Shown piece by piece: positions 5,951-55,878 of a DNA stretch of 64,000 nucleotides (position 1 is its first letter; every line of letters begins with the position of its first letter). The notes under the pieces were generated by a model that was given only the letters and a program-made list of their open reading frames with translations, made no database searches and was not told where the DNA came from. The position numbers were made by a program, and so were the translations under genes. Origin of the DNA: Rhizobium sp. Q54 (GTDB lineage Bacteria; Pseudomonadota; Alphaproteobacteria; SHVZ01); NCBI GenBank assembly GCA_945871425.1, contig CAMBVS010000010.1, positions 6,543 through 70,542 on the forward strand, in the 5' to 3' direction.

Positions 5951-7975
5951 ATGGCGGAGGTGCCGGTGCGGGGAGTTCGTCCATTTCTTGATCTGGTCAG
6001 CCCGGCGCGGGCCGAGGAGCCGTCTTCGGCCGGCGCCGCCCAGCTGATCGCGGGCATGCGCGGCCACGCCGGGGACCTGGTCCAACGTCTCGGCGCGATC
6101 CGCGAGGCGCTCGCGGACCTTCCGGGCTACGCCCAGCACGCGCTCGATCTCCTGACCGATCTCGAAGGGTTGCCGTCCCTGGGCGCAGCACTCCTTGCCC
6201 TGATCGCCGTCGCTGCGCTGGGCGGAATTGCTCAATGGCTGTTCAGCCGGACGATGCGGCGGCTCCGCGAGCGGATGGCGGCGACGCCGGGGACGCTGAT
6301 GCATGCCGGCGCGCTGCTCGCGAGCCTGCTCCTCGACGCCATCGGTATCATCATCTTCCTGGCCGTCGCCAACGGCGCCACCTTCCTCTTCCTCGACCGC
6401 TTCGATCCGCGCCGCGAGCTGGTGGTCGCGATTCTGCTCGCCATTTCGGCAGCCCAGCTGGCCGGCGCCGTCTCGCGCGCCATCCTGTCGCCGTCCACCC
6501 CACGGCTTCGTCTGATCAGCCTCGACGACTTGACCGCCCGCGGCCTGCAGCGCTGGGCCGTCGGCCTCGCCGCGATCGCGGGCTTCGCCTATTTCGGCGG
6601 CGGACTGCTCGGTATCCTGGCGGTGCCGCCGGAGCTGAGAACGCTCTGGGACATCGCCTTCGCCCTGCTGCTAGCGCTGCTGCTGGCGGCCTGGATCTGG
6701 CTCAACCGTCGGTCGGTCGCCGATGCCTTCGGCAGCGAGGGCTTCGCCCAATCCTGGCATGCCGCGGCCACCGTCTACGTCGCCATGGTCTGGCTGGTCT
6801 GGTCCTACAAGCGCCTGCTCGACCGGCCGGACGGCACCAGGACCGTGCTGTTGAGCGCGCTGGTGGTGCTCGCGGTTCCGCTCGCCGATCGCCTGGTGCG
6901 ACGCCTGCTCGACCGGCTGTTCCGGCCCTGGCCGGGGCAGGAGGCGGAGACCGCGCTGCGCCTCGCCCGCGCGTCCCGCGTCATCCTCGGCGCGTTCCGG
7001 GTGATGATCGCGGTCGCCGCCATCGCGATCCTGATCGAGGCATGGGGCGGGCCGGTCATCGCCACGCTCAGGAACGACATGGGCCGGTCGATCCTCCGCG
7101 CCGTCTTCAACATCGCCGTCGCCGTGGTCCTCGGCTACGGCGCCTGGGAAGGCAGCAAGATCCTGATCGAGCGCCATGTCGGCCGGCCGCAGCCGGGCGA
7201 GGAGCTGCAGCCGGGGACCCGCGCCCACACGCTGCTGCCGGTGCTCCGCCACTTCGCGCTCGGCGCCCTCTCCGTCGTCATCGGCCTGATTGTGCTGTCC
7301 TCGCTCGGCGTCGACATCGCTCCGCTCTTGGCCGGCGCCGGGATCGTCGGCCTCGCCATCGGCTTCGGCGCCCAGGCCCTGGTCCGCGACATCGTCGCGG
7401 GGTTCTTCTTCCTGCTCGACGACGCGTTTCGCATCGGCGAGTACGTCGATGTCGGGCGGGTGAAGGGCACGGTCGAGGGCATCACCATCCGCTCGCTTCA
7501 GCTTCGCCACCACCGCGGCGCGCTCCACACCATCCCCTATGGGCAGATCCAGGCGATCAGCAACCACCACCGCGACTGGGTGATCGAGAAGCTGGAGTTC
7601 GGTCTGCCGTACGGCACGGACATCGAGAAGGTTCGGAAGATCCTGAAGAAGATCGGCGAGCAGTTGATGGAAAACCCCGAGATCGCAGCGGTGATGCTGG
7701 AGCCGCTGAAGAGCCAGGGCGTCACGCGCCTCGCAGACTCCGCCATGATCTTCCGGGCCAAGTTCAAGACCAAGCCCGGCGAGCAGTTCGTGGTGCGGCG
7801 GGAGGCCTACAGGCGCATACAGGCGGCCTTTGCGGAGAATGGCATCGAGTTCGCCTTCCCGACGGTCCGGATCGCCGACAATGCCGGCGACGCCGATATC
7901 GCTGCCGCCGCCCAACGGGCGATCGCAGCGAACGCCCCGAAGTCCCCCGAAAAATCTTCTACATCAGGGAGTTAA
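5951..7975 (+). CDS. Mechanosensitive ion channel, MscS family (large multi-TM form)
   Basis: 674 aa with multiple TM helices, followed by the MscS pore and beta-domain signature GIVGLAIGFGAQALVRDIVAGFFFLLDDAFRIGEYVDVGRVKGTVEGITIRS. Confidence 0.85.
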   Translation: MAEVPVRGVRPFLDLVSPARAEEPSSAGAAQLIAGMRGHAGDLVQRLGAIREALADLPGYAQHALDLLTDLEGLPSLGAALLALIAVAALGGIAQWLFSRTMRRLRERMAATPGTLMHAGALLASLLLDAIGIIIFLAVANGATFLFLDRFDPRRELVVAILLAISAAQLAGAVSRAILSPSTPRLRLISLDDLTARGLQRWAVGLAAIAGFAYFGGGLLGILAVPPELRTLWDIAFALLLALLLAAWIWLNRRSVADAFGSEGFAQSWHAAATVYVAMVWLVWSYKRLLDRPDGTRTVLLSALVVLAVPLADRLVRRLLDRLFRPWPGQEAETALRLARASRVILGAFRVMIAVAAIAILIEAWGGPVIATLRNDMGRSILRAVFNIAVAVVLGYGAWEGSKILIERHVGRPQPGEELQPGTRAHTLLPVLRHFALGALSVVIGLIVLSSLGVDIAPLLAGAGIVGLAIGFGAQALVRDIVAGFFFLLDDAFRIGEYVDVGRVKGTVEGITIRSLQLRHHRGALHTIPYGQIQAISNHHRDWVIEKLEFGLPYGTDIEKVRKILKKIGEQLMENPEIAAVMLEPLKSQGVTRLADSAMIFRAKFKTKPGEQFVVRREAYRRIQAAFAENGIEFAFPTVRIADNAGDADIAAAAQRAIAANAPKSPEKSSTSGS

Positions 7976-8062
7976 AAATTTAGTCTCGATTCGGAACTAA
8001 TTCCATCAAGAGCGGGGGAATTTCGATTATCGACTGCCATCAACCGGCGGCCACAGGAAAAG

Positions 8063-8083
8063 TAAGGCATAATTACTGCCTTA
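8063..8083. promoter_or_regulatory. Inverted repeat TAAGGCA-N7-TGCCTTA in the AT-rich region upstream of gltD
   Basis: Read directly: taaggca taattac tgcctta, about 105 nt upstream of the gltD ATG in a locally AT-rich 214-nt intergenic region. Confidence 0.25.
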
Positions 8084-8189
8084 TCTGTCATTTTGCGGTG
8101 GCGCCAAGGAAATAGGGCGGTCATTCTGACCTTCTTTCCGGCCCCTCCCGGCCACCCCGACGGCGCCTGCCTAGTAAGGACCCGAACCG

Positions 8190-9635
8190 ATGGCGACCAG
8201 CCAGCGCATGCTCAGCTTCGTCTCCGTCGACAAGCAGATGCCCGACAAGCGCGCGGCTGCGACTCGCACATCCGACTTCCAGGAGATCTTCGCCGAGTTC
8301 GATGCAGCACGGGCGGCCGAGCAGGCCGGACGCTGTTCGCAATGCGGCGTGCCGTTCTGCCAGGTTCATTGCCCGCTCCACAACAACATCCCGGACTGGC
8401 TGATGCTGACCGCCCAGGGGCGGCTGGAGGAAGCCTACGAGGTCGCCGCGGCGACCAACACCTTCCCCGAGATCTGCGGGCGCATCTGCCCGCAGGACCG
8501 GCTCTGCGAGGGCAACTGCGTCATCGAGAAGGGCTTCGAGTCCGTCACCATCGGCACGGTCGAGAAGTACATCACCGACCAGGCCTTCCAGAACGGCTGG
8601 GTCAAGGCGATCCGCCCGCCGCGCGAGCTCGGCCAGTCGGTCGGCATCGTCGGCGCCGGTCCGGGCGGGCTCGCCGCCGCCGAAGTGCTCCGCCGCAAGG
8701 GCTACCAGGTCACCGTCTACGATCGCCACGACCGGGTCGGCGGCCTGATGATCTACGGCATTCCCAACTTCAAGCTGGAGAAGCCGGTGGTCGAGCGCCG
8801 CACCGGGTGGCTGATCGACGGCGGCGTCAAGTTCGTGCTGAACGTCGAGGTCGGCCGCGAGATCACGCTGGCCGAGCTTCGCCGGCGCCACGACGCCGTG
8901 CTGATCGCGACCGGCGTCTACCGCGCCCGCGATATCCAGGCCCCCGGCGTCGGCCAGGACGGGATTGCTCCCGCCCTCGACTACCTGATCGCGTCCAACC
9001 GCAAAGGCCTCGGCGACGACGTCCCGGCCTTCGACGACGGCACGCTGAACGCCGAGGGCAAGCACGTCGTCGTCATCGGCGGCGGCGACACGGCGATGGA
9101 CTGCGTGCGCACCGCCGTCCGCCAGGGCGCCAAGTCGGTCAAATGCCTCTATCGCCGCGACCGCGCCAACATGCCGGGCTCCCAGCGCGAGGTGTTCCAC
9201 GCCGAGGAGGAAGGGGTCGAGTTCGTCTGGCTCGCCCAGCCGGAGGCCTTCCTCGGCGACGGCCGCGTCACCGGCGTGCGTGCCCAGCGCGTCCATCTCG
9301 GCATGCCCGACGCCACCGGGCGCCAGGTGCCGCAGCCGATCGGCGACTCGCACTTCACGGTCGAAGCCGATCTCGTCCTCAAGGCGCTGGGATTCGATCC
9401 CGAGGATCTGCCCGTCCTATTCGGCGCGCCCGAACTCGAGGTGACCAAGTGGGGCACGATCAAGATCAACCAGCGGACGATGGAGACCAACCTGCCGGGC
9501 GTCTACGCCGCCGGCGACATCGTCCGCGGTGCCTCGCTGGTCGTCTGGGCGATCCGCGACGGCCGCGACGCCGCCCAATCCATCCATCGCACCCTGAGCC
9601 AGCCGCAATCGGCCGCGCTCAAGCTCGCCTCTTGA
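8190..9635 (+). CDS. gltD: Glutamate synthase (NADPH) small subunit
   Basis: 481 aa. It has the N-terminal Fe-S Cys motifs (RCSQCGVPFCQVHCP, GRICPQDRLCEGNC) and two Rossmann GxGxxG motifs (VGIVGAGPGGLAAA, VVVIGGGDTAMDC). Confidence 0.95.
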   Translation: MATSQRMLSFVSVDKQMPDKRAAATRTSDFQEIFAEFDAARAAEQAGRCSQCGVPFCQVHCPLHNNIPDWLMLTAQGRLEEAYEVAAATNTFPEICGRICPQDRLCEGNCVIEKGFESVTIGTVEKYITDQAFQNGWVKAIRPPRELGQSVGIVGAGPGGLAAAEVLRRKGYQVTVYDRHDRVGGLMIYGIPNFKLEKPVVERRTGWLIDGGVKFVLNVEVGREITLAELRRRHDAVLIATGVYRARDIQAPGVGQDGIAPALDYLIASNRKGLGDDVPAFDDGTLNAEGKHVVVIGGGDTAMDCVRTAVRQGAKSVKCLYRRDRANMPGSQREVFHAEEEGVEFVWLAQPEAFLGDGRVTGVRAQRVHLGMPDATGRQVPQPIGDSHFTVEADLVLKALGFDPEDLPVLFGAPELEVTKWGTIKINQRTMETNLPGVYAAGDIVRGASLVVWAIRDGRDAAQSIHRTLSQPQSAALKLAS

Positions 9636-9698
9636 GGGAAAACAGGCGATGATTTGGCTCACTGAGCCCTGCGCCGCCAAGCGGTCCGGAGACTCGTC

Positions 9699-10819
9699 AT
9701 GAGCACGGTCAAGCGTGCAGTCGACGACGGTGTGCGTCGACGCCTTCGCATAGAAAGCAAAGCGACCTTCGCCGACGCGATCGCTTGGTTTGGCGTCTAT
9801 GTCGGCCCGCGCTCCCGATTGAGGTCGGAAGTCAAGGATCAGGAAGAGGAATACTGCGCGCGTCGCTGGTTGATCGCGATGACCTACGTTGACCGGCTTC
9901 GCCTTCCGGTCGATGTGGAGATGTCGAGCAAGCTAGGACAGGAAAGGCTGCGGCTACCCGACATGGTCCTCCGCTGGGACGATGGCGAGGCGCTCGGCGT
10001 GGAGATCCGGCAGGCAACAACGCAGCGCGACCAAGAATATCGGACTAGGGCCGCCAAGAGCGACGAACCTCCGGAACCTCTCCCGAACGGCGCGAGTTTC
10101 GATGCCCACAAGAATGCCGTCATTTCCAATATTTGCGAGGCGATCACGGAGAAGGCGAAGAAGGGCTACGGCGGCGTCTCGCCACGCGACCTCCTGCTGT
10201 ACGTGGGTTCGGAAAGCGGAGCAGCGCTTCTGTACGGCGGTGATGTGCCGGCGCTAATGTCCGAGGTCTTGCAGGCGGTCCGTGAAAGGGCGCGATCGGC
10301 ACAAGGCTTCCGTCTATTGCACGTCCTTTGGGGTGAAGCGGTGTTCCTCGACGTGTTCGGCAACACGTTCGCCCAAGTCGACCTCTCCGCCAACTACGCG
10401 AACGACTGGTGGGCGTGGCTTCGCGCTCAAGCCGATCATCTCCGCGCCCGTCGCCTTAAAGACATCGACTACGACAATCTGGCCGAGGAGCTCGAAGGGT
10501 TGGGACGCTCGGACAAGAGGGCTCTGACGAGCCATCTCCGGAATCTGCTTGTGCATCTGCTCAAGTGGCGATTCCAGCCGGAAATGCGCACGCCAAGCTG
10601 GAGACTGTCGATCCAGAATGCGCGAGACGAGATTGAAGAGGCGGTGGCGGAGAGCCCGAGCTTCGAGCCGACCTTGGATGAGCTGACCGTGAAGCAGTAT
10701 CCGAAAGCGCGAGAAGACGCAGCCAACGAGATGGACATCGATGCCGACGCCCTTCCCCAAGCGTGTCCCTTTGAGCTGGACCAGATTCTGGACCGCAAGT
10801 TCTTTCCGGATGCCAACCC

Positions 10820-10823
<4 letters not shown>
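9699..10823 (+). CDS. Fusion protein: unassigned N-terminal domain (about 230 aa, possible PD-(D/E)xK-like core) plus C-terminal DUF29 domain
   Basis: The C-terminal ~140 aa (nt about 10404-10820: DWWAWLRAQADHLRARRLKDIDYDNLAEELEGLGRSDKRALTSHLRNLLVHLLKWRFQPE...FELDQILDRKFFP) matches my memory of the DUF29 signature. The N-terminal part contains EEEY...LPDMVL...GVEIRQ spacing. GC is lower than in the flanking glt genes. The TGA stop overlaps the gltB ATG (ATGA). Confidence 0.75.
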
Positions 10824-15373
<4,550 letters not shown>

Positions 15374-49997: not shown

Positions 49998-51323
49998 CTA
50001 GTTGGTGCGCGTGGTGCGGCCGGAGGCATCCGCGAGGGTCGCTTTGCCGGCCAGCGGCTGTATCGGCTGGCAAGCCTGCTTCTGGCGCTTCAGCTCCTCG
50101 CAGAGCGACCTGGCCTGGGCGGGCGACAGATTCTGCAAGCGGGCACGATAGCGCTTGCCGTCGGCGGTCTTCACCGCCGCGATGTCGCTGGCCGCCGTCG
50201 AGGTCGACCTGGGTGCCAGGCGGAAGGCATCGGCGACGGCACGCTCGGCCTGGACCTGGGTCTTGAAGATACCGACCTGGGCCGACCACGGCCGGCCGCC
50301 GGCCGCCTCGATCGCCTGGCGCTCCAGCTCGTCGGCCGAAGGGCCGGGCTTCGCCTTGGTCTTGGCGGAGGTGGCGGCCTTGGACAGGGCGTCGGTCTTG
50401 GTCGGCTTCTTCTGCTGATCGGCGACGCGGATCAGCGGCGCATCGGCGTCAGGCTGGCGCGGACCGCGGATGCCGAGGGTGCCGAAGCCGTCGTCCAGCA
50501 GCGACACCATATGTGCATCGCGGGCGCGGCCGCTGGAGCCGCCGAAGACCACACCGATCACGCGGCGGCCGTCGCGCTGGGCCGAGGCCACCAGGTTGAA
50601 GCCGGAGGAATTGATGAAGCCGGTCTTGATGCCGTCGACGCCGTCGTAGGCGCCAAGCAGGCGATTGTGATTGTGATGGACCTGGCCGCGGAAGACGAAC
50701 TCTGCGGTCGAGAAGTAGCGATATTGGCGCGGATGGTCGCGAAGCATGGCCAGCGCCAGCACCGCCATGTCGCGGGCGCTGGTCACCTGGCGCGGGTTGG
50801 GCAGGCCCGAGGCGTTGACGAAGGTGGTCTGGGCCATGCCGAGCGAACGGGCCCGCTGGGTCATGCGCTGGCCGAAGGCCTCCTCGCTTTCCGCCATCGC
50901 CTCGGCCAGTACCACGGCCGCGTCGTTGGCTGACTTGGTGACGAGGGCGAGGATCGCCTGCTCGACGGTGAGCGCGTCGCCGGGCCTGAGACCAAGCTTC
51001 GAGGGGGTCATCGCGGCGGCGTGGGCGGACGCCCTGATCGGCTGCTGCAGGTTCAGCTGACCCCGCTTCAGCGCGTCGAACGTCATGTAGAGCGTCATAA
51101 TCTTGGTCAGCGACGCGGGATGCAGCACCTGATCCGCATTGCTCGCCGCCAGAACCCGGCCCGACTCGGCATCGACCACGATCGAGGCGTAGCGTTCATC
51201 GGCGGTAAAGGCGGGCATGATCGCTGCCGAGGCCGCGGATGCCATCAGCAGGAGCGCTGCAAGGCTCAGGGTCCAGATTTTGAGACGCCTTATCCCGTCC
51301 GACCTCATCGCCGTCTCCAGCAA
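49998..51323 (-). CDS. D-alanyl-D-alanine carboxypeptidase (S11, PBP5/6-like) with C-terminal SPOR domain
   Basis: Motifs SLTKIMT (SxxK), SANDAA (SxN) and KTGF (KTG). The C-terminus WSAQVGIFKTQVQAERA...YRARLQNLSPAQARSLCEEL is SPOR-like. Alternative start at 51308. Confidence 0.85.
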   Translation of the reverse strand: MLETAMRSDGIRRLKIWTLSLAALLLMASAASAAIMPAFTADERYASIVVDAESGRVLAASNADQVLHPASLTKIMTLYMTFDALKRGQLNLQQPIRASAHAAAMTPSKLGLRPGDALTVEQAILALVTKSANDAAVVLAEAMAESEEAFGQRMTQRARSLGMAQTTFVNASGLPNPRQVTSARDMAVLALAMLRDHPRQYRYFSTAEFVFRGQVHHNHNRLLGAYDGVDGIKTGFINSSGFNLVASAQRDGRRVIGVVFGGSSGRARDAHMVSLLDDGFGTLGIRGPRQPDADAPLIRVADQQKKPTKTDALSKAATSAKTKAKPGPSADELERQAIEAAGGRPWSAQVGIFKTQVQAERAVADAFRLAPRSTSTAASDIAAVKTADGKRYRARLQNLSPAQARSLCEELKRQKQACQPIQPLAGKATLADASGRTTRTN

Positions 51324-51513
51324 AATTCTCTTGGATGGTCACTATTGTGCTACAGCATTGGTGTCGACGTTAGAAAAATCTTGCAAGTATTTGTTTTTAA
51401 ATGATTTATCAGCAGCCGCTGATGTGAATTATGGCGAATCTGAGGCGAATCAAGAGGTTAGGGATGAGACGTCGCGGACGGGAAAGGTGACCAAGAAATC
51501 CGTCGCAGATGCG

Positions 51514-51584
51514 ATATTGCACTGCACAATATCCCTTGACACTCCCCGGAGATCGCCTATTTAAGGCGCATGCTGCAGTGCAGC
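51514..51584 (+). promoter_or_regulatory. Candidate sigma70 promoter of the phasin gene, flanked by two TGC-rich palindromic operators (PhaR-type)
   Basis: TTGACA (51536-41), 16 nt, TATTTA (51558-63). Upstream is the near-palindrome ATATTGCACTGCACAATAT (51514-32). Downstream is the perfect palindrome GCTGCAgTGCAGC (51572-84), which contains CTGC-N3-GCAG. Confidence 0.45.
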
Positions 51585-51635
51585 ACAAAACAACCCGCGC
51601 CGGCCGCCGCCGGCCATCCCGTGAAGGAGACTCCC

Positions 51636-52166
51636 ATGAACCAGAAGACCCAGAAGTCGGCGCCTTCCGCGAAAGACGCGTTCCAGGCCGCCGAGACCGT
51701 CAAGGAGACCGTCGAGACCGTCGTCAAGGCCGGCACCGCCGCCGCCAAGGCCTCCTACGAGCAGGCCATGGAGATGACCAAGAGCAACGTCGAGAAGGCC
51801 TCGCAGAACTTCTTCAAGGGCTATGGAGAGCTCGCCAATCTCGGCAAGCAGAACCTCGAGGCGTTCGTCCAGTCCTCGACCGTCGTGGTCAAGGGCGCGG
51901 AGACCTTCGGCAAGGAGTGGATGGGCTTCGCCCAGGCCGCCGTCGAGCAGAACGTCGCCGCCATCCAGAGCCTGGTCGCCGCCAAGACCCTGAAGGAGGT
52001 CGTCGACCTCCAGAACGACTGGGCGAAGAAGACCTTCGACACCGCCGTCGCCGAGAGCGCCAAGCTCTCCGAGATGGGCGTCAAGACCGCCAACGACGCC
52101 TTCGAGCCGATCAAGGCTCGCGTGAACGTGAGCGTCGAGAAGCTGTTCAAGCCGGCCGCTGCGTAA
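51636..52166 (+). CDS. Phasin (PHA granule-associated protein)
   Basis: 176 aa from MNQKTQK (GAAGGAGA RBS). It is Ala/Lys/Glu-rich and helical, with NLEAFVQSSTVVVKGAETFGKEWMGFAQ..VEQNVAA...AKTLKEVVDLQNDW typical of the alphaproteobacterial phasin_2 family. Confidence 0.82.
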   Translation: MNQKTQKSAPSAKDAFQAAETVKETVETVVKAGTAAAKASYEQAMEMTKSNVEKASQNFFKGYGELANLGKQNLEAFVQSSTVVVKGAETFGKEWMGFAQAAVEQNVAAIQSLVAAKTLKEVVDLQNDWAKKTFDTAVAESAKLSEMGVKTANDAFEPIKARVNVSVEKLFKPAAA

Positions 52167-52199
52167 CGCCTTCGCTTCAAGCGAATCGTGCCGATCGAC

Positions 52200-52236
52200 G
52201 GCCCGGCAGGGGATCCTGCCGGGCCGTTTGCTTTTT
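52200..52236 (+). terminator. Rho-independent terminator after the phasin gene
   Basis: Perfect 11-bp stem ggcccggcagg / cctgccgggcc with a 4-nt loop, followed by TTTGCTTTTT. Confidence 0.8.
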
Positions 52237-52381
52237 CAGGGTCGCGTTCCCATCTGAGTAGGCCTCTGCCGCATCCGGGTTTTCGCCATGTTCGCCGACG
52301 AGACTCGGTCCAACCCTTCCCCTCGTGGTTCCGCGACCCTATGATTTCATCCGACCTGATCGTCCCTAGGATTCGCGTATC

Positions 52382-55124: not shown

Positions 55125-55604
55125 TCAGGCGGCCTGATCGGTCTCGTCGTCGAGATCGGCCTCGGCGGCTCCGGCGATCTGACGGATCAGGTCGCAGAGC
55201 CGGCGACGGACGGCGACGTCCTGGATCCGGTAGTAGGCGCGGACGAGTTCGAGGGTCTCGCGCTTGTTGAGAGGATCGGCGCTCGCCTTCATCGACTCCG
55301 GCATCTCGCGCACCGGCACCGGCTGGGTATCGGGCTCGAGGCCCTCGAAGAAATAGGTGATCGGCACGCCGAGCACGCGCGACAGCTCCCACAGCCGGCT
55401 GGCGCCGACCCGGTTGAAGCCACGCTCGTATTTCTGGACCTGCTGGAAGGTGAGGCCGAGGGCCTCGCCGAGCTGGGTCTGGCTCATCCCGAGCAGGGTG
55501 CGCCGCTGGCGGACCCGAAGGCCGACATGAGCGTCGACCGAACTGGCGCCGCGGGGGTTGTGGTTTTCGCTCTTTGCCGACTTCGCGGCAGCTTTCCTCG
55601 GCAT
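55125..55604 (-). CDS. XRE-family HTH transcriptional regulator (PhrR/PraR-like)
   Basis: 159 aa from MPRKAAAK (AGGAG RBS). VGLRVRQRRTLLGMSQTQLGEALGLTFQQVQKYERGFNRVGASRLWELSRVLGVPITYFFEG closely resembles rhizobial PhrR/PraR as I remember them. Confidence 0.8.
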   Translation of the reverse strand: MPRKAAAKSAKSENHNPRGASSVDAHVGLRVRQRRTLLGMSQTQLGEALGLTFQQVQKYERGFNRVGASRLWELSRVLGVPITYFFEGLEPDTQPVPVREMPESMKASADPLNKRETLELVRAYYRIQDVAVRRRLCDLIRQIAGAAEADLDDETDQAA

Positions 55605-55618
55605 AGCGAGACTCCTGG

Positions 55619-55637
55619 TTTCACGTGTTTTCACGTG
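55619..55637. promoter_or_regulatory. Tandem TTTCACGTG repeat (two CACGTG palindromes, 10-bp spacing) just upstream of the XRE regulator gene
   Basis: Read directly: tttcacgtg-t-tttcacgtg, 15-33 nt upstream of the start codon at 55604. Confidence 0.3.
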
Positions 55638-55878
55638 GGTTTTTTGGAGGTTTCTACCTCTTCTTGTCACAATTTGGGGCCGTGCGCGACCCGAAACAAT
55701 GCCAGCATCGGTCTTTTCCAAACAATTTTCAATAATTTTAGAGCAAACCCTAAACGCAACGTATGCCATGCAATCTCAACTACCCAGGGCGTTAACTCTC
55801 TACAGGATTGAAAGTAACGCCCATAAATCAACCGGCACTGCGGCAGGCGCCTCAAACACCCGCCTCACATTCTCGTGA

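Follow-up and report, generated by a model that had tools for sequence, protein, structure and literature searches.

The window analyzed here is a 64,000-nucleotide stretch of a contig (CAMBVS010000010.1) assigned to Rhizobium sp. Q54, and it carries the genes for both subunits of glutamate synthase on the forward strand. The conserved flanks of the locus are the small-subunit gene gltD upstream (8190-9635; Pfam Fer4_20 and Pyr_redox_2) and the large-subunit gene gltB downstream (10844-15373; Pfam GATase_2, Glu_syn_central, Glu_synthase and GXGXG). The two genes are separated, as the initial annotation had reported, by a 374-codon ORF on the same strand (9699-10823), which we refer to as X. 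Its product has an N-terminal domain of an unnamed family (N-domain; amino acids 1-231, 9699-10391), predicted to be alpha/beta with a PD-(D/E)xK-like topology, followed by a DUF29 domain modeled as a helical bundle (amino acids 233-369, 10395-10805). A small upstream reading frame (uORF) of 17 codons, MIWLTEPCAAKRSGDSS, lies between gltD and X at 9649-9702. It starts 13 nt past the gltD stop, which is the position at which gltB starts in sites that have no X, and its TGA shares an ATGA (9699-9702) with the start codon of X. An equivalent uORF of 13 codons with the same ATGA overlap was observed at loci L001 and L002, and the uORF is missing from other loci because X there begins 5-19 nt past gltD. 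The 17-codon uORF may have a role at this locus.

No terminator-like site was found between gltD, X and gltB, and X should therefore be expressed from the operon as its middle cistron. At the downstream end, the stop of X overlaps the first in-frame ATG of gltB as had been described (ATGA at 10820-10823, with 10820 in the gltB frame). The translational coupling of X to gltB that had been proposed from this overlap is uncertain, however, as a second candidate start, the ATG at 10844, is preceded by a GGAG (10834-10837) with a 6-nt spacer. The ATG at 10844 matches the M-T-D/Q start in four of five relatives whose sites are empty (ATGACC start), and in L001, where the sequence is identical, the gene caller took the equivalent ATG, 21 nt past the X stop. 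The long GltB N-terminus of L010 is compatible with a start at 10820. Based on the sequence, gltB may therefore use either the ATG at 10844, which has a GGAG of its own, or the one in the ATGA at 10820. In Ntn-type glutamate synthases the N-terminal propeptide of GltB is removed, so the mature enzyme would be unaffected by the choice of start.

The absence of an integrase, IS or flanking repeats noted initially was upheld by our inspection of the ORFs adjoining X and by a repeat search around it. The only direct or inverted repeats flanking X were imperfect ones no longer than 21 nt, as expected by chance, and no transposase or integrase, terminal inverted repeats, target-site duplication or attC-like site was found at X. 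An IS, a transposon and an integron cassette were rejected on the strength of this absence of machinery and repeats. A riboswitch or leader RNA in the spacer was likewise rejected, as Rfam gave no match over 7800-11200.

Comparison of base composition set X apart from its flanks. X has a GC content of 0.609 and a GC3 of 0.727, in agreement with the lower GC noted earlier, versus 0.692 and 0.921 for gltD and 0.679 and 0.939 for gltB. The GC3 of 36 likely genes in the window averaged 0.877 +/- 0.038, with a minimum of 0.791, and X falls within the lowest 1% of 1122-nt windows. The start of gltB, which had been estimated by hand at about 75% GC, measured about 0.69. Other low-GC patches of the window were considered as related elements and rejected, as ordinary genes are encoded there. 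A deficit of this kind is not confined to the window: at every X-bearing locus, the GC3 of X was 0.11-0.29 below that of both flanks.

The distribution of X was both patchy and faithful to a single site. Empty sites were observed in the five closest reference genomes (L010, L011, L013, L014 and L015), whose gltD is 87-89% identical to that of the window and whose gltD-gltB gap is 6-48 bp, and neither domain of X was found within 8 kb on either side of glt in any of 80 reference loci. Its foreign composition and its absence from the closest relatives make X an accessory, acquired gene, as the initial annotation had thought probable. A strain-specific insertion, on the other hand, is not what we found. 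X occupied the same gltD-X-gltB slot in the same orientation at each of the 11 X-bearing loci that show a flank (the window, L001/2, L003, L005, L006, L008, L009, L090, L091, L092 and L093; both flanks visible in nine). A scan of metagenome and viral contigs with a tighter alignment contributed three loci. This is a slot-dedicated family, because relatives only 33-42% identical share the slot and orientation at every locus where a flank can be seen. X begins 5-19 nt past the gltD stop, or 56-63 nt past it with a coupled uORF between, and gltB restarts anywhere from an 8-nt overlap to 28 nt past the X stop, except in L003, where the distance is 163 nt. The initial annotation had looked to Hyphomicrobiales for relatives, which was not supported: the closest gltD sequences (87-94% identity) come from unclassified Alphaproteobacteria or Rhodospirillaceae-type MAGs, beside Thalassobaculum and its relatives. 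On the gltD tree, loci with X are interspersed among sisters that lack it. In other lineages the gltD-gltB spacer holds unrelated cargo, including DUF2442 and other small genes, which indicates that the slot is permissive in its own right. Overall, the fusion family is rare, compositionally foreign and found only at the gltD-gltB slot in scattered Alphaproteobacteria.

The C-terminal 137 amino acids of X are a bona fide member of DUF29, as had been recognized at the outset. PF01724 matched amino acids 233-369 with E = 1.5e-43 (148.8 bits versus a cut-off of 22.5), covering profile positions 2-138 of 138. The DUF29 structure 3fcn from Rhodospirillum rubrum matched X by sequence (phmmer E = 8.6e-7) and was the top Foldseek match of the full-length model (probability 1.00; TM 0.57, target-normalised), which is all-helical over residues 237-345 and returned DUF29 matches only. 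In PHROGs, the DUF29 half matched phrog_11797, a PHROG of unknown function. A HEPN-like Rx4-6H motif was considered for DUF29 and rejected, as only H286 is conserved and the Arg is variable. Typical DUF29 proteins are stand-alone, about 145 amino acids long, and occur on plasmids, in filamentous phages and in cyanobacteria; stand-alone DUF29 genes are also present on 5-kb plasmids, paired with HTH genes. In contrast to these, the copy in X is fused to a 231-amino acid nuclease-like domain and is held in one chromosomal slot. P0020 and P0021, in which DUF29 follows short and different N-termini, were rejected as related cases: they have no glt context and fall outside the family. Tandem DUF29 genes were also seen between cobS and cobT. 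Literature searches on DUF29/PF01724, on ORFs between gltD and gltB in Azospirillum, and on a homing endonuclease at gltB returned nothing relevant.

The N-terminal region, left without an assignment at first, kept that status: residues 1-231 were unmatched in Pfam, NCBIfam, PADLOC, PHROGs and the PDB sequences. The N-domain family is widespread, with 1049 representatives at E < 1e-3 and roughly 60 representatives of the fusion, and full-length relatives of X number about 19 among 5.8 billion clusters. In 50 sequences with a mean identity of 23%, D88 and K152 were invariant and E50, P87, E102 and Y168 were at least 90% conserved, and X of the window retains all of E50, P87-D88, E102, K152 and Y168. 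The corresponding codons of the putative active site span 9846-10202 (E50, 9846-9848; P87-D88, 9957-9962; E102, 10002-10004; K152, 10152-10154; Y168, 10200-10202). An AF2 model of the N-domain (pLDDT 84.4, pTM 0.84) predicts a helix at 43-63 that bears E50, strands at 71-76, at 89-92 after P87-D88 and at 98-106 with E102, then helices, and a strand at 163-169 with Y168. As modeled, this would be an alpha-beta-beta-beta-alpha-beta core with the acidic residues placed as in PD-(D/E)xK enzymes, the geometry of the site itself being predicted.

A PD-(D/E)xK core was what the initial annotation had guessed from the motifs EEEY, LPDMVL, GVEIRQ, ICEAITEKAKK and DLLLYV, all of which are present and hold family-conserved residues. 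Its reservation, that Arg replaces the canonical Lys, turned out to be beside the point. Position 104 varies: it is R in X of the window, mostly T in the relatives, and V or A in others. The canonical (D/E)xK Lys, two residues past the second acidic residue, is absent. The invariant Lys is K152, on the ICEAITEKAKK helix, and relocation of the Lys is known in some members of the PD-(D/E)xK superfamily. Fold searches with the N-domain model against PDB and BFVD gave nothing significant (best E 0.02-0.06; TM 0.2-0.3), with EcoO109I at E = 0.06 and an Mrr-domain protein of BFVD at E = 0.027 (probability 0.75). These weak matches were enriched in PD-(D/E)xK nucleases such as EcoO109I, Exo5, the Mrr domain, RecU and ALK-EXO. 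The 50-sequence profile matched nothing among PDB sequences, and hhalign of the N-domain with a neighbouring DUF6035/CoiA-like protein gave a probability of 0.1. The PD-(D/E)xK guess is strengthened, because the residues flagged at the outset, on their modeled core, are those conserved across a family of only 23% identity, but it is unproven, because no fold or profile match was significant. We infer that the N-domain is a Mg-dependent PD-(D/E)xK-type DNA endonuclease with E50, D88 and E102 as catalytic residues and a helix-borne K152.

Comparison of X in the window with its counterpart in L001 revealed that the gene has not diverged uniformly. Nucleotide identity in the core of the N-domain (9900-10307) was 40-65%, mostly 40-57%. 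It was 77-100% across the DUF29 half and the junction of X with gltB, and 83-90% over the head of gltB. Correspondingly, the N-domain had a dS of 1.66, compared with 0.36 in the C-domain and 0.45 in gltB, with the N-domain core 4-5 times as high as the remainder of X, and dN/dS was 0.13-0.22, indicative of purifying selection. The two flanks of X in the window group with different relatives, in comparisons of only 92 and 200 nt. From these sequence comparisons, X of the window is evidently a recombination mosaic whose alleles recombine with one another. Some loci contain tandem arrays of X with conserved junction repeats and divergent cores. Copies within the arrays show complementary loss of N-domain or DUF29 residues, and include intact copies as well as nuclease-dead copies with an intact DUF29; L006, L008b and L008c are without the catalytic residue set. 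Array make-up and a hypervariable core of this kind are more typical of immunity and defence loci than of homing genes.

Members of the N-domain family also occur outside the fusion family. In the cultured Azospirillum halopraeferens DSM 3675, an N-domain gene that stands alone, with about 22% identity to that of the window, lies 13 nt past gltD, and the gltD stop marks the exact point at which GC drops from 0.70-0.75 to 0.43-0.45; GC3 is 0.44 versus 0.97. This member probably represents an independent arrival at the same slot. Another member lies 16 nt past a ribonucleotide reductase (RNR) gene that bears an intein/LAGLIDADG element. In plasmids and phages, a tblastn search with X returned the DUF29 half only, and P0094 had no match among plasmids.

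We propose, with a probability of roughly 0.38, that X is a horizontally moving selfish gene at the gltD-gltB junction that behaves like a homing endonuclease and is expressed within the operon. X lies in the sense orientation between gltD and gltB, begins at the usual gltB start and passes translation on to gltB within 0-28 nt at most loci (163 nt in L003). In this tentative scheme, its nuclease would cut glt alleles that lack X, within the conserved flanks or close to them, and repair from an occupied allele would copy X into the cut site. DUF29 would supply a separable, trans-acting function, either DNA targeting or neutralisation or regulation of the nuclease. A cycle of invasion, degeneration and re-invasion would follow, in which some copies would be expected to lose nuclease residues. 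We favor this reading because of the slot fidelity, patchiness and foreign composition of the family, the independent arrival in Azospirillum, the RNR-adjacent member, the active-site-like conservation, the lack of other insertion machinery, the degenerate copies, the dS mosaic and the discordant flanks. Homing into glt would account for distant members, one of them of 45% GC, at the same slot without integrase, transposase or repeats, and a foreign family confined to one exact slot points to a site-faithful selfish or conflict gene rather than to a one-off insertion or a helper of glutamate synthase. No candidate homing target site was identified at the glt locus. A broader version, in which the N-domain would be the founder of a new class of homing endonucleases that intercalate into chromosomal operons and target junctions between highly conserved enzyme-subunit genes (gltD/gltB, RNR), with DUF29 as a trans-acting partner for DNA targeting or for neutralising the nuclease, we regard as rather unlikely; if true, the partner role would explain the stand-alone DUF29 genes of tiny plasmids and filamentous phages and the tandem DUF29 genes at cobS-cobT.

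The closest parallel we considered is with the free-standing homing endonuclease genes of T-even phages, the Seg and Mob families, such as mobE between nrdA and nrdB. Like these, X is a single nuclease-type gene packed tightly between conserved co-oriented genes; it is sporadic among close relatives, with clean empty sites and degenerate copies; and it lacks integrase, transposase and repeats, with one family member beside a ribonucleotide reductase gene. Unlike these, X resides in a core metabolic operon of a bacterial chromosome, is predicted to be PD-(D/E)xK-like rather than GIY-YIG or HNH, is fused to DUF29, and forms tandem arrays with hypervariable cores. I-Ssp6803I, the PD-(D/E)xK homing endonuclease of a cyanobacterial group I intron, is a precedent for a restriction-endonuclease fold serving as a bacterial homing enzyme, although it is small and intron-encoded and no sequence or fold similarity to X was detected.

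A close rival, which we also hold as a tentative possibility, is that X works as a conflict module of a defence, abortive-infection or toxin-antitoxin-like kind, with the N-domain as effector or toxin and DUF29 as sensor, regulator or antidote. X would then not target the glt locus but stay there because its conserved flanks serve as homology arms for allele exchange, to which the dS mosaic would attest, and diversifying selection would keep the core hypervariable. O-antigen clusters, the hsd 'immigration control region' and orphan-immunity arrays are polymorphic loci exchanged through conserved flanks in this manner. X resembles them in its fixed place between conserved genes, its persistently low GC, its mosaic alleles, its varying presence among relatives and its arrays with partly inactivated paralogues, but those are multigene loci of known function and X is one small ORF between the subunits of one enzyme. 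The neighbourhoods of N-domain relatives on conjugative plasmids are in keeping with a defence role: on Shewanella pSBAL11702 a relative lies beside Abi-family and superinfection-exclusion (Sie) genes, and on Bradyrhizobium pNK6a one that is itself the second, overlapping gene of a pair lies beside caspase-domain, IS4 and HipA-like genes. Fusions to NTP_transf_2, or to a region that weakly matches AbiEii, were also seen among N-domain relatives. The occurrence of DUF29 alone on 5-kb plasmids, with HTH genes and on filamentous phages, the arrays with conserved junctions, divergent cores and complementary loss of domain residues, and the DUF2442 and other small cargo of the spacer point the same way. 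Against this, PADLOC gave no match for X to any catalogued defence or toxin-antitoxin model, and no such model in NCBIfam or Pfam matched the N-domain. Further, defence families usually turn up at many hotspots, but the fusion family was found at one slot only; recombination through the flanks would be very inefficient at the 22-32% gltD protein divergence between hosts; and a 45%-GC member at the same slot of an Azospirillum of roughly 70% GC is not easily explained.

We consider it improbable that X entered an alphaproteobacterial ancestor once, long ago, and has since been inherited vertically with many losses, with a function unrelated to its location and a low GC3 due to weak expression or weak codon selection rather than transfer. 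The X tree is partly congruent with host genes (an L005/L092/L093 clade and an L003/L090/L091 group), and within the L093+(L005,L092) clade of the gltD tree the X identities are 48-50%, so vertical descent explains part of the pattern. The similar dS of the DUF29 half and the gltB head (0.36 and 0.45) and the purifying selection are also in its favor. However, this history requires many independent, precise deletions that restored a 6-48-bp gltD-gltB junction, and it is at odds with the GC3 deficit in every host, the elevated dS of the N-domain core and the discordant flanks. The Azospirillum member, with its GC3 of 0.44 versus 0.97 and its sharp boundary, cannot be old. Least probable is that X is an accessory of glutamate synthase (an assembly, regulatory or protective factor) kept for co-expression, as its strictly operonic, sense-oriented position with tight or overlapping gltB junctions and no internal terminator-like site might suggest, because X is missing from the closest relatives and the 80 reference loci, all of which have normal gltDB operons, its composition is foreign, its copies can be tandem and partly degenerate, family members lie beside RNR and on plasmids without glt genes, and in other lineages the spacer is filled by unrelated genes.

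For annotation, these data mean that the gltD-gltB spacer should be treated as a recurrent cargo slot, and that the start of gltB should be called with care there. The N-domain is a large family without a Pfam entry: it has more than 1000 representatives, and its candidate active site is clear. That DUF29 works with or against a nuclease is suggested by its fusion in X, by the arrays with complementary losses and by the stand-alone copies on plasmids and phages, and this offers the first functional handle open to testing on a domain that is among the oldest unsolved DUFs of Pfam. If our homing-like interpretation is correct, X would represent a selfish nuclease gene that, in free-living Alphaproteobacteria, has colonised the junction between the subunit genes of an enzyme central to nitrogen assimilation, a lifestyle that, to our knowledge, has so far been documented mainly in phage genomes, introns and inteins.

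The C-terminal 137 residues encoded by X, a 374-codon gene (9699-10823, + strand) lying between gltD (8190-9635, + strand, from ORF call and Pfam) and gltB, are unambiguously DUF29 (Pfam PF01724, E=1.5e-43, full profile covered). The solved DUF29 structure 3fcn matched X by sequence and was the sole convincing fold match for the full-length model. Residues 1-231 (the N-domain) had no match in Pfam, NCBIfam, PADLOC, PHROGs, or PDB sequences, and this domain is covered by no curated family. X is also a compositional outlier in the window, with a GC content of 0.609 and a GC3 of 0.727, versus 0.692/0.921 in gltD, 0.679/0.939 in gltB, and a background GC3 of 0.877 ± 0.038 (minimum 0.791, 36 likely genes). 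The initial annotation was therefore correct in placing a DUF29-bearing ORF of lower GC between gltD and gltB. Its figure of ~75% GC for the start of gltB was too high (about 0.69 was measured), and its grouping of the host with the Hyphomicrobiales was not borne out, as the closest gltD genes were from unclassified Alphaproteobacteria or Rhodospirillaceae-like MAGs. Further low-GC patches (0.60-0.63) at 49998-52261 and 55125-55769 contain genes for a Peptidase_S11 with SPOR domain, a 250-aa ORF without assignment, and an HTH_3 protein; from these genes no relation to X was apparent. Upstream of gltD, a terminator-like hairpin (8062-8084) and a low-GC stretch (0.53-0.56) probably represent the end of an MscS-like gene (5951-7975) and the glt operon's promoter region.

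All three genes are on the + strand with no terminator-like or promoter-like site between them, no known RNA family was detected around X by an Rfam search, and no meaningful repeats were found flanking it. X is thereby placed for co-transcription and co-translation with gltD and gltB. A 17-codon ORF (9649-9702, + strand) starts where the ancestral gltB ATG lay and overlaps the X start in an ATGA; a 13-codon counterpart is present in the compared loci L001/L002. Downstream, ATGs at 10820, 10832, and 10844 are all in the gltB frame. The last is preceded 6 nt upstream by GGAG (10834-10837) and gives a product beginning M-T-D-G-E-R-F-V, which agrees with the M-T-(D/Q) starts of gltB in four of five relatives lacking X, and its equivalent was picked by the gene caller in L001, where the sequence is identical. 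The longer GltB N-terminus of L010, an X-free relative, is compatible with 10820 too. In the X-bearing loci L006 and L005 the X stop overlaps the conserved gltB start, so coupling of X and gltB is a trait of the family even if the window uses 10844. In Ntn amidotransferases the GltB propeptide is removed, exposing the catalytic Cys, and the choice of start therefore leaves the mature enzyme unchanged.

Full-length relatives of X were rare, numbering only about 19 among 5.8 billion protein clusters. Genomic context was recovered for P0002 (68% identical to the window X), P0006, P0011, P0017, P0018, P0013, P0009, and P0016, and for three loci from a metagenome scan. The order gltD-X-gltB, in sense orientation, was seen in 11/11 X-bearing loci with a visible flank (both flanks were visible in nine), and relatives at this same junction had X proteins only 33-42% and gltD proteins only 68-78% identical to those of the window. 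X began 5-19 nt past the gltD stop, the position taken by the gltB start when the operon is unoccupied, with longer distances in the window (63 nt) and L001 (56 nt). The gltB gene restarted between an 8-nt overlap with the X stop and 28 nt after it, or 163 nt in L003. X belongs to a family bound to a single slot and is not a strain-specific insert.

The window gltD was also scanned against 185,579 species, each represented by a single genome, and the best 80 loci were retained. In the five closest with a visible junction (L010, L011, L013, L014, and L015; gltD identity 87-89%) the gltD-gltB gap was 6-48 bp, and profile HMMs of the N-domain and DUF29 had no match within ±8 kb in the best 80 loci. 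X-bearing loci were dispersed on the gltD tree, each among X-free sisters, except for a clade of L093, L005, and L092, the X proteins of which likewise cluster (48-50% identity). The distribution of X is one of some vertical descent plus patchiness. Unrelated genes occupied the spacer in about 25 other lineages, and this makes it a permissive, recurrent cargo slot in Alphaproteobacteria. Spacers were about 920-1015 bp in L030, L032, L043, L051, L058, and L086, and about 530-610 bp in L021, L028, L033, L068, L078, L088, and L089; L019 and L074 also held other cargo. The cargo genes, all in sense orientation, included a GST-like 204-aa gene with a 67-aa tautomerase-like gene (Reyranella type), a secreted DUF2059-like ORF, a GNAT-like ORF, and a small DUF2442-like ORF.

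An exhaustive profile search returned 1049 representatives of the N-domain family at E<1e-3. About 60 were DUF29 fusions, many were stand-alone proteins of 200-250 aa, and a few were fused to a nucleotidyltransferase domain or a weak AbiEii match. In a 50-sequence alignment (23% mean identity), D88 and K152 were the sole invariant residues, and R38, E50, P70, P87, E102, A106, and Y168 were at least 90% conserved. In the AlphaFold model of the domain, which was confident (pLDDT 84.4, pTM 0.84), E50 lies on a long helix. P87-D88 open a strand, E102 is central in the strand that comes next, and, farther along, K152 is on a helix and Y168 on the strand succeeding it. The modelled topology and residue pattern are those of the restriction-endonuclease (PD-(D/E)xK) fold. 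The canonical Lys is absent; position +2 from E102 is R in the window, and most relatives have T there. Fold searches against PDB and BFVD gave no significant match (best EcoO109I, E=0.06, and a viral Mrr-domain protein, E=0.027), and the weak matches were visibly enriched in PD-(D/E)xK nucleases. On these grounds we infer, with good reason, that the N-domain is a putative DNA endonuclease. The window X keeps all conserved N-domain residues, and dN/dS against the 68% identical relative was 0.22 in the N-domain and 0.13 in DUF29, which indicates that the gene is under purifying selection.

Two metagenomic loci, L008 (24-3380) and L094 (85-2764), each carry a tandem array of three X paralogues, located upstream of gltB. 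The array repeat runs from the last ~150 nt of one copy through a 60-nt spacer into the first ~100-145 nt of the following copy and was 81-91% identical, and the interiors of the copies shared just 48-56% protein identity. In the first copies, L008a and L094a, the N-domain residue set is kept but W290 and R297, conserved in DUF29, are gone; in L008b and L008c the N-domain set is gone and all conserved DUF29 residues are kept. L006 has likewise lost the N-domain catalytic set with an intact DUF29. Because these losses are complementary, the two domain functions seem to be separable, and that of DUF29 can apparently be supplied in trans.

Comparison of the window with L001 in 60-column windows revealed a mosaic. 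Nucleotide identity was 87% in the gltD tail and the first 80 nt of X, mostly 40-57% (one window at 65%) in the N-domain core (9900-10307), 77-93% in the DUF29 half, 100% at the X/gltB junction, and 83-90% in the gltB head. The dS values were 1.66 for the N-domain, 0.36 for DUF29, and 0.45 for the gltB head, and since faster protein evolution is unable to raise dS, the core has a separate history. This points to a cassette-like replacement of the N-domain core. The window gltD tail was 91-92% identical to X-free relatives versus 83% to L001, and the gltB head 88% to L001 versus 80-84% to X-free relatives; these differing affinities agree with replacement, and with segments so short are only suggestive.

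The GC3 of X was 0.11-0.29 under that of both flanks in every locus examined. A more distant member, a stand-alone N-domain protein of the cultured organism Azospirillum halopraeferens (WP_156927257.1, about 22% identical to the window N-domain), is encoded 13 nt past the gltD stop, with a DUF2442 gene and gltB coming next in that order (L097 6989-8214, KE386927.1). GC content there drops from 0.70-0.75 to 0.43-0.45 precisely at the gltD stop and rises again about 775 bp on, and the gene has a GC3 of 0.44 versus 0.96-0.97 in the flanks. This copy appears to have entered the same slot recently, out of a low-GC source. The DUF2442 gene is about 63% GC, with a 167-nt spacer before gltB. In L098 (3506-7609), a class II ribonucleotide reductase gene, which already contains an intein with a LAGLIDADG domain, is followed after 16 nt by a stand-alone N-domain gene; ribonucleotide reductase-type genes are classic homing targets. 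A CcdA/CcdB pair is located about 5 kb upstream.

Both domains also occur on mobile elements. In the literature searched, one paper mentioned DUF29, and only in passing. Stand-alone DUF29 genes adjoin Rep on a 5-kb Rahnella plasmid, form the overlapping second gene behind an HTH gene on Acidiphilium pACMV2, and are found on Piscirickettsia plasmids and filamentous Ralstonia phages. In Methylobacterium bullatum (L099 4453-5549, NZ_LR743510.1), two tandem DUF29-only genes lie between CobS-like and CobT-like genes, another intercalation between conserved co-oriented genes; the pair overlap slightly, the CobS-like gene encodes an AAA ATPase, and the record carries no annotation for this region. 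On conjugative plasmids, relatives of the N-domain sit in conflict-system neighbourhoods: a DUF6035/unknown/N-domain/unknown/Abi/SieB (superinfection exclusion) cluster on Shewanella baltica pSBAL11702 (L103 2661-7968), and caspase-domain (two genes), IS4, and HipA-like genes near the relative on Bradyrhizobium pNK6a (L102 3763-5684). The latter is annotated as a "syntaxin-like protein" and overlaps an upstream 392-aa gene of unknown function.

X is faithful to one operon junction, accessory, compositionally foreign, and recombining. The leading mechanism, to which we give a probability of roughly 0.38, is homing-like drive by X, in which the N-domain enzyme would cut glt alleles that lack X, within the conserved flanks or close to them, and X would be copied in as the cut allele is repaired. 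This is because such drive best accounts for X keeping to one slot in hosts that diverge at order level, for the 45%-GC member found there too, for the absence of other insertion machinery, and for the ribonucleotide reductase-adjacent member and the degenerate copies. A close rival, almost as probable, is that X serves in defence or addiction, does not target glt DNA at all, and is exchanged merely via the conserved flanks; this would best account for the neighbourhoods of the plasmid relatives, the hypervariability of the core, and the nuclease-dead, DUF29-intact array copies. Flank recombination is hard to accept as the route for the A. halopraeferens copy, as the donor flanks must have differed greatly. 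Pure vertical descent with losses fits poorly and is improbable, a single ancient insertion being hard to reconcile with the recent low-GC arrival of so distant a member. An accessory role in glutamate synthase is also a poor fit, and very improbable.

Our literature searches returned no description of an N-domain-DUF29 gene between gltD and gltB. The anatomy and distribution of X are well supported and striking; its mechanism, nuclease activity and homing included, is what we infer. X resembles in its behaviour the free-standing homing endonuclease genes of phages, but unlike them it resides in bacterial chromosomes, within a core metabolic operon; its predicted catalytic fold is a different one, joined to DUF29, and its arrays and mosaics are features seen more typically at conflict loci.
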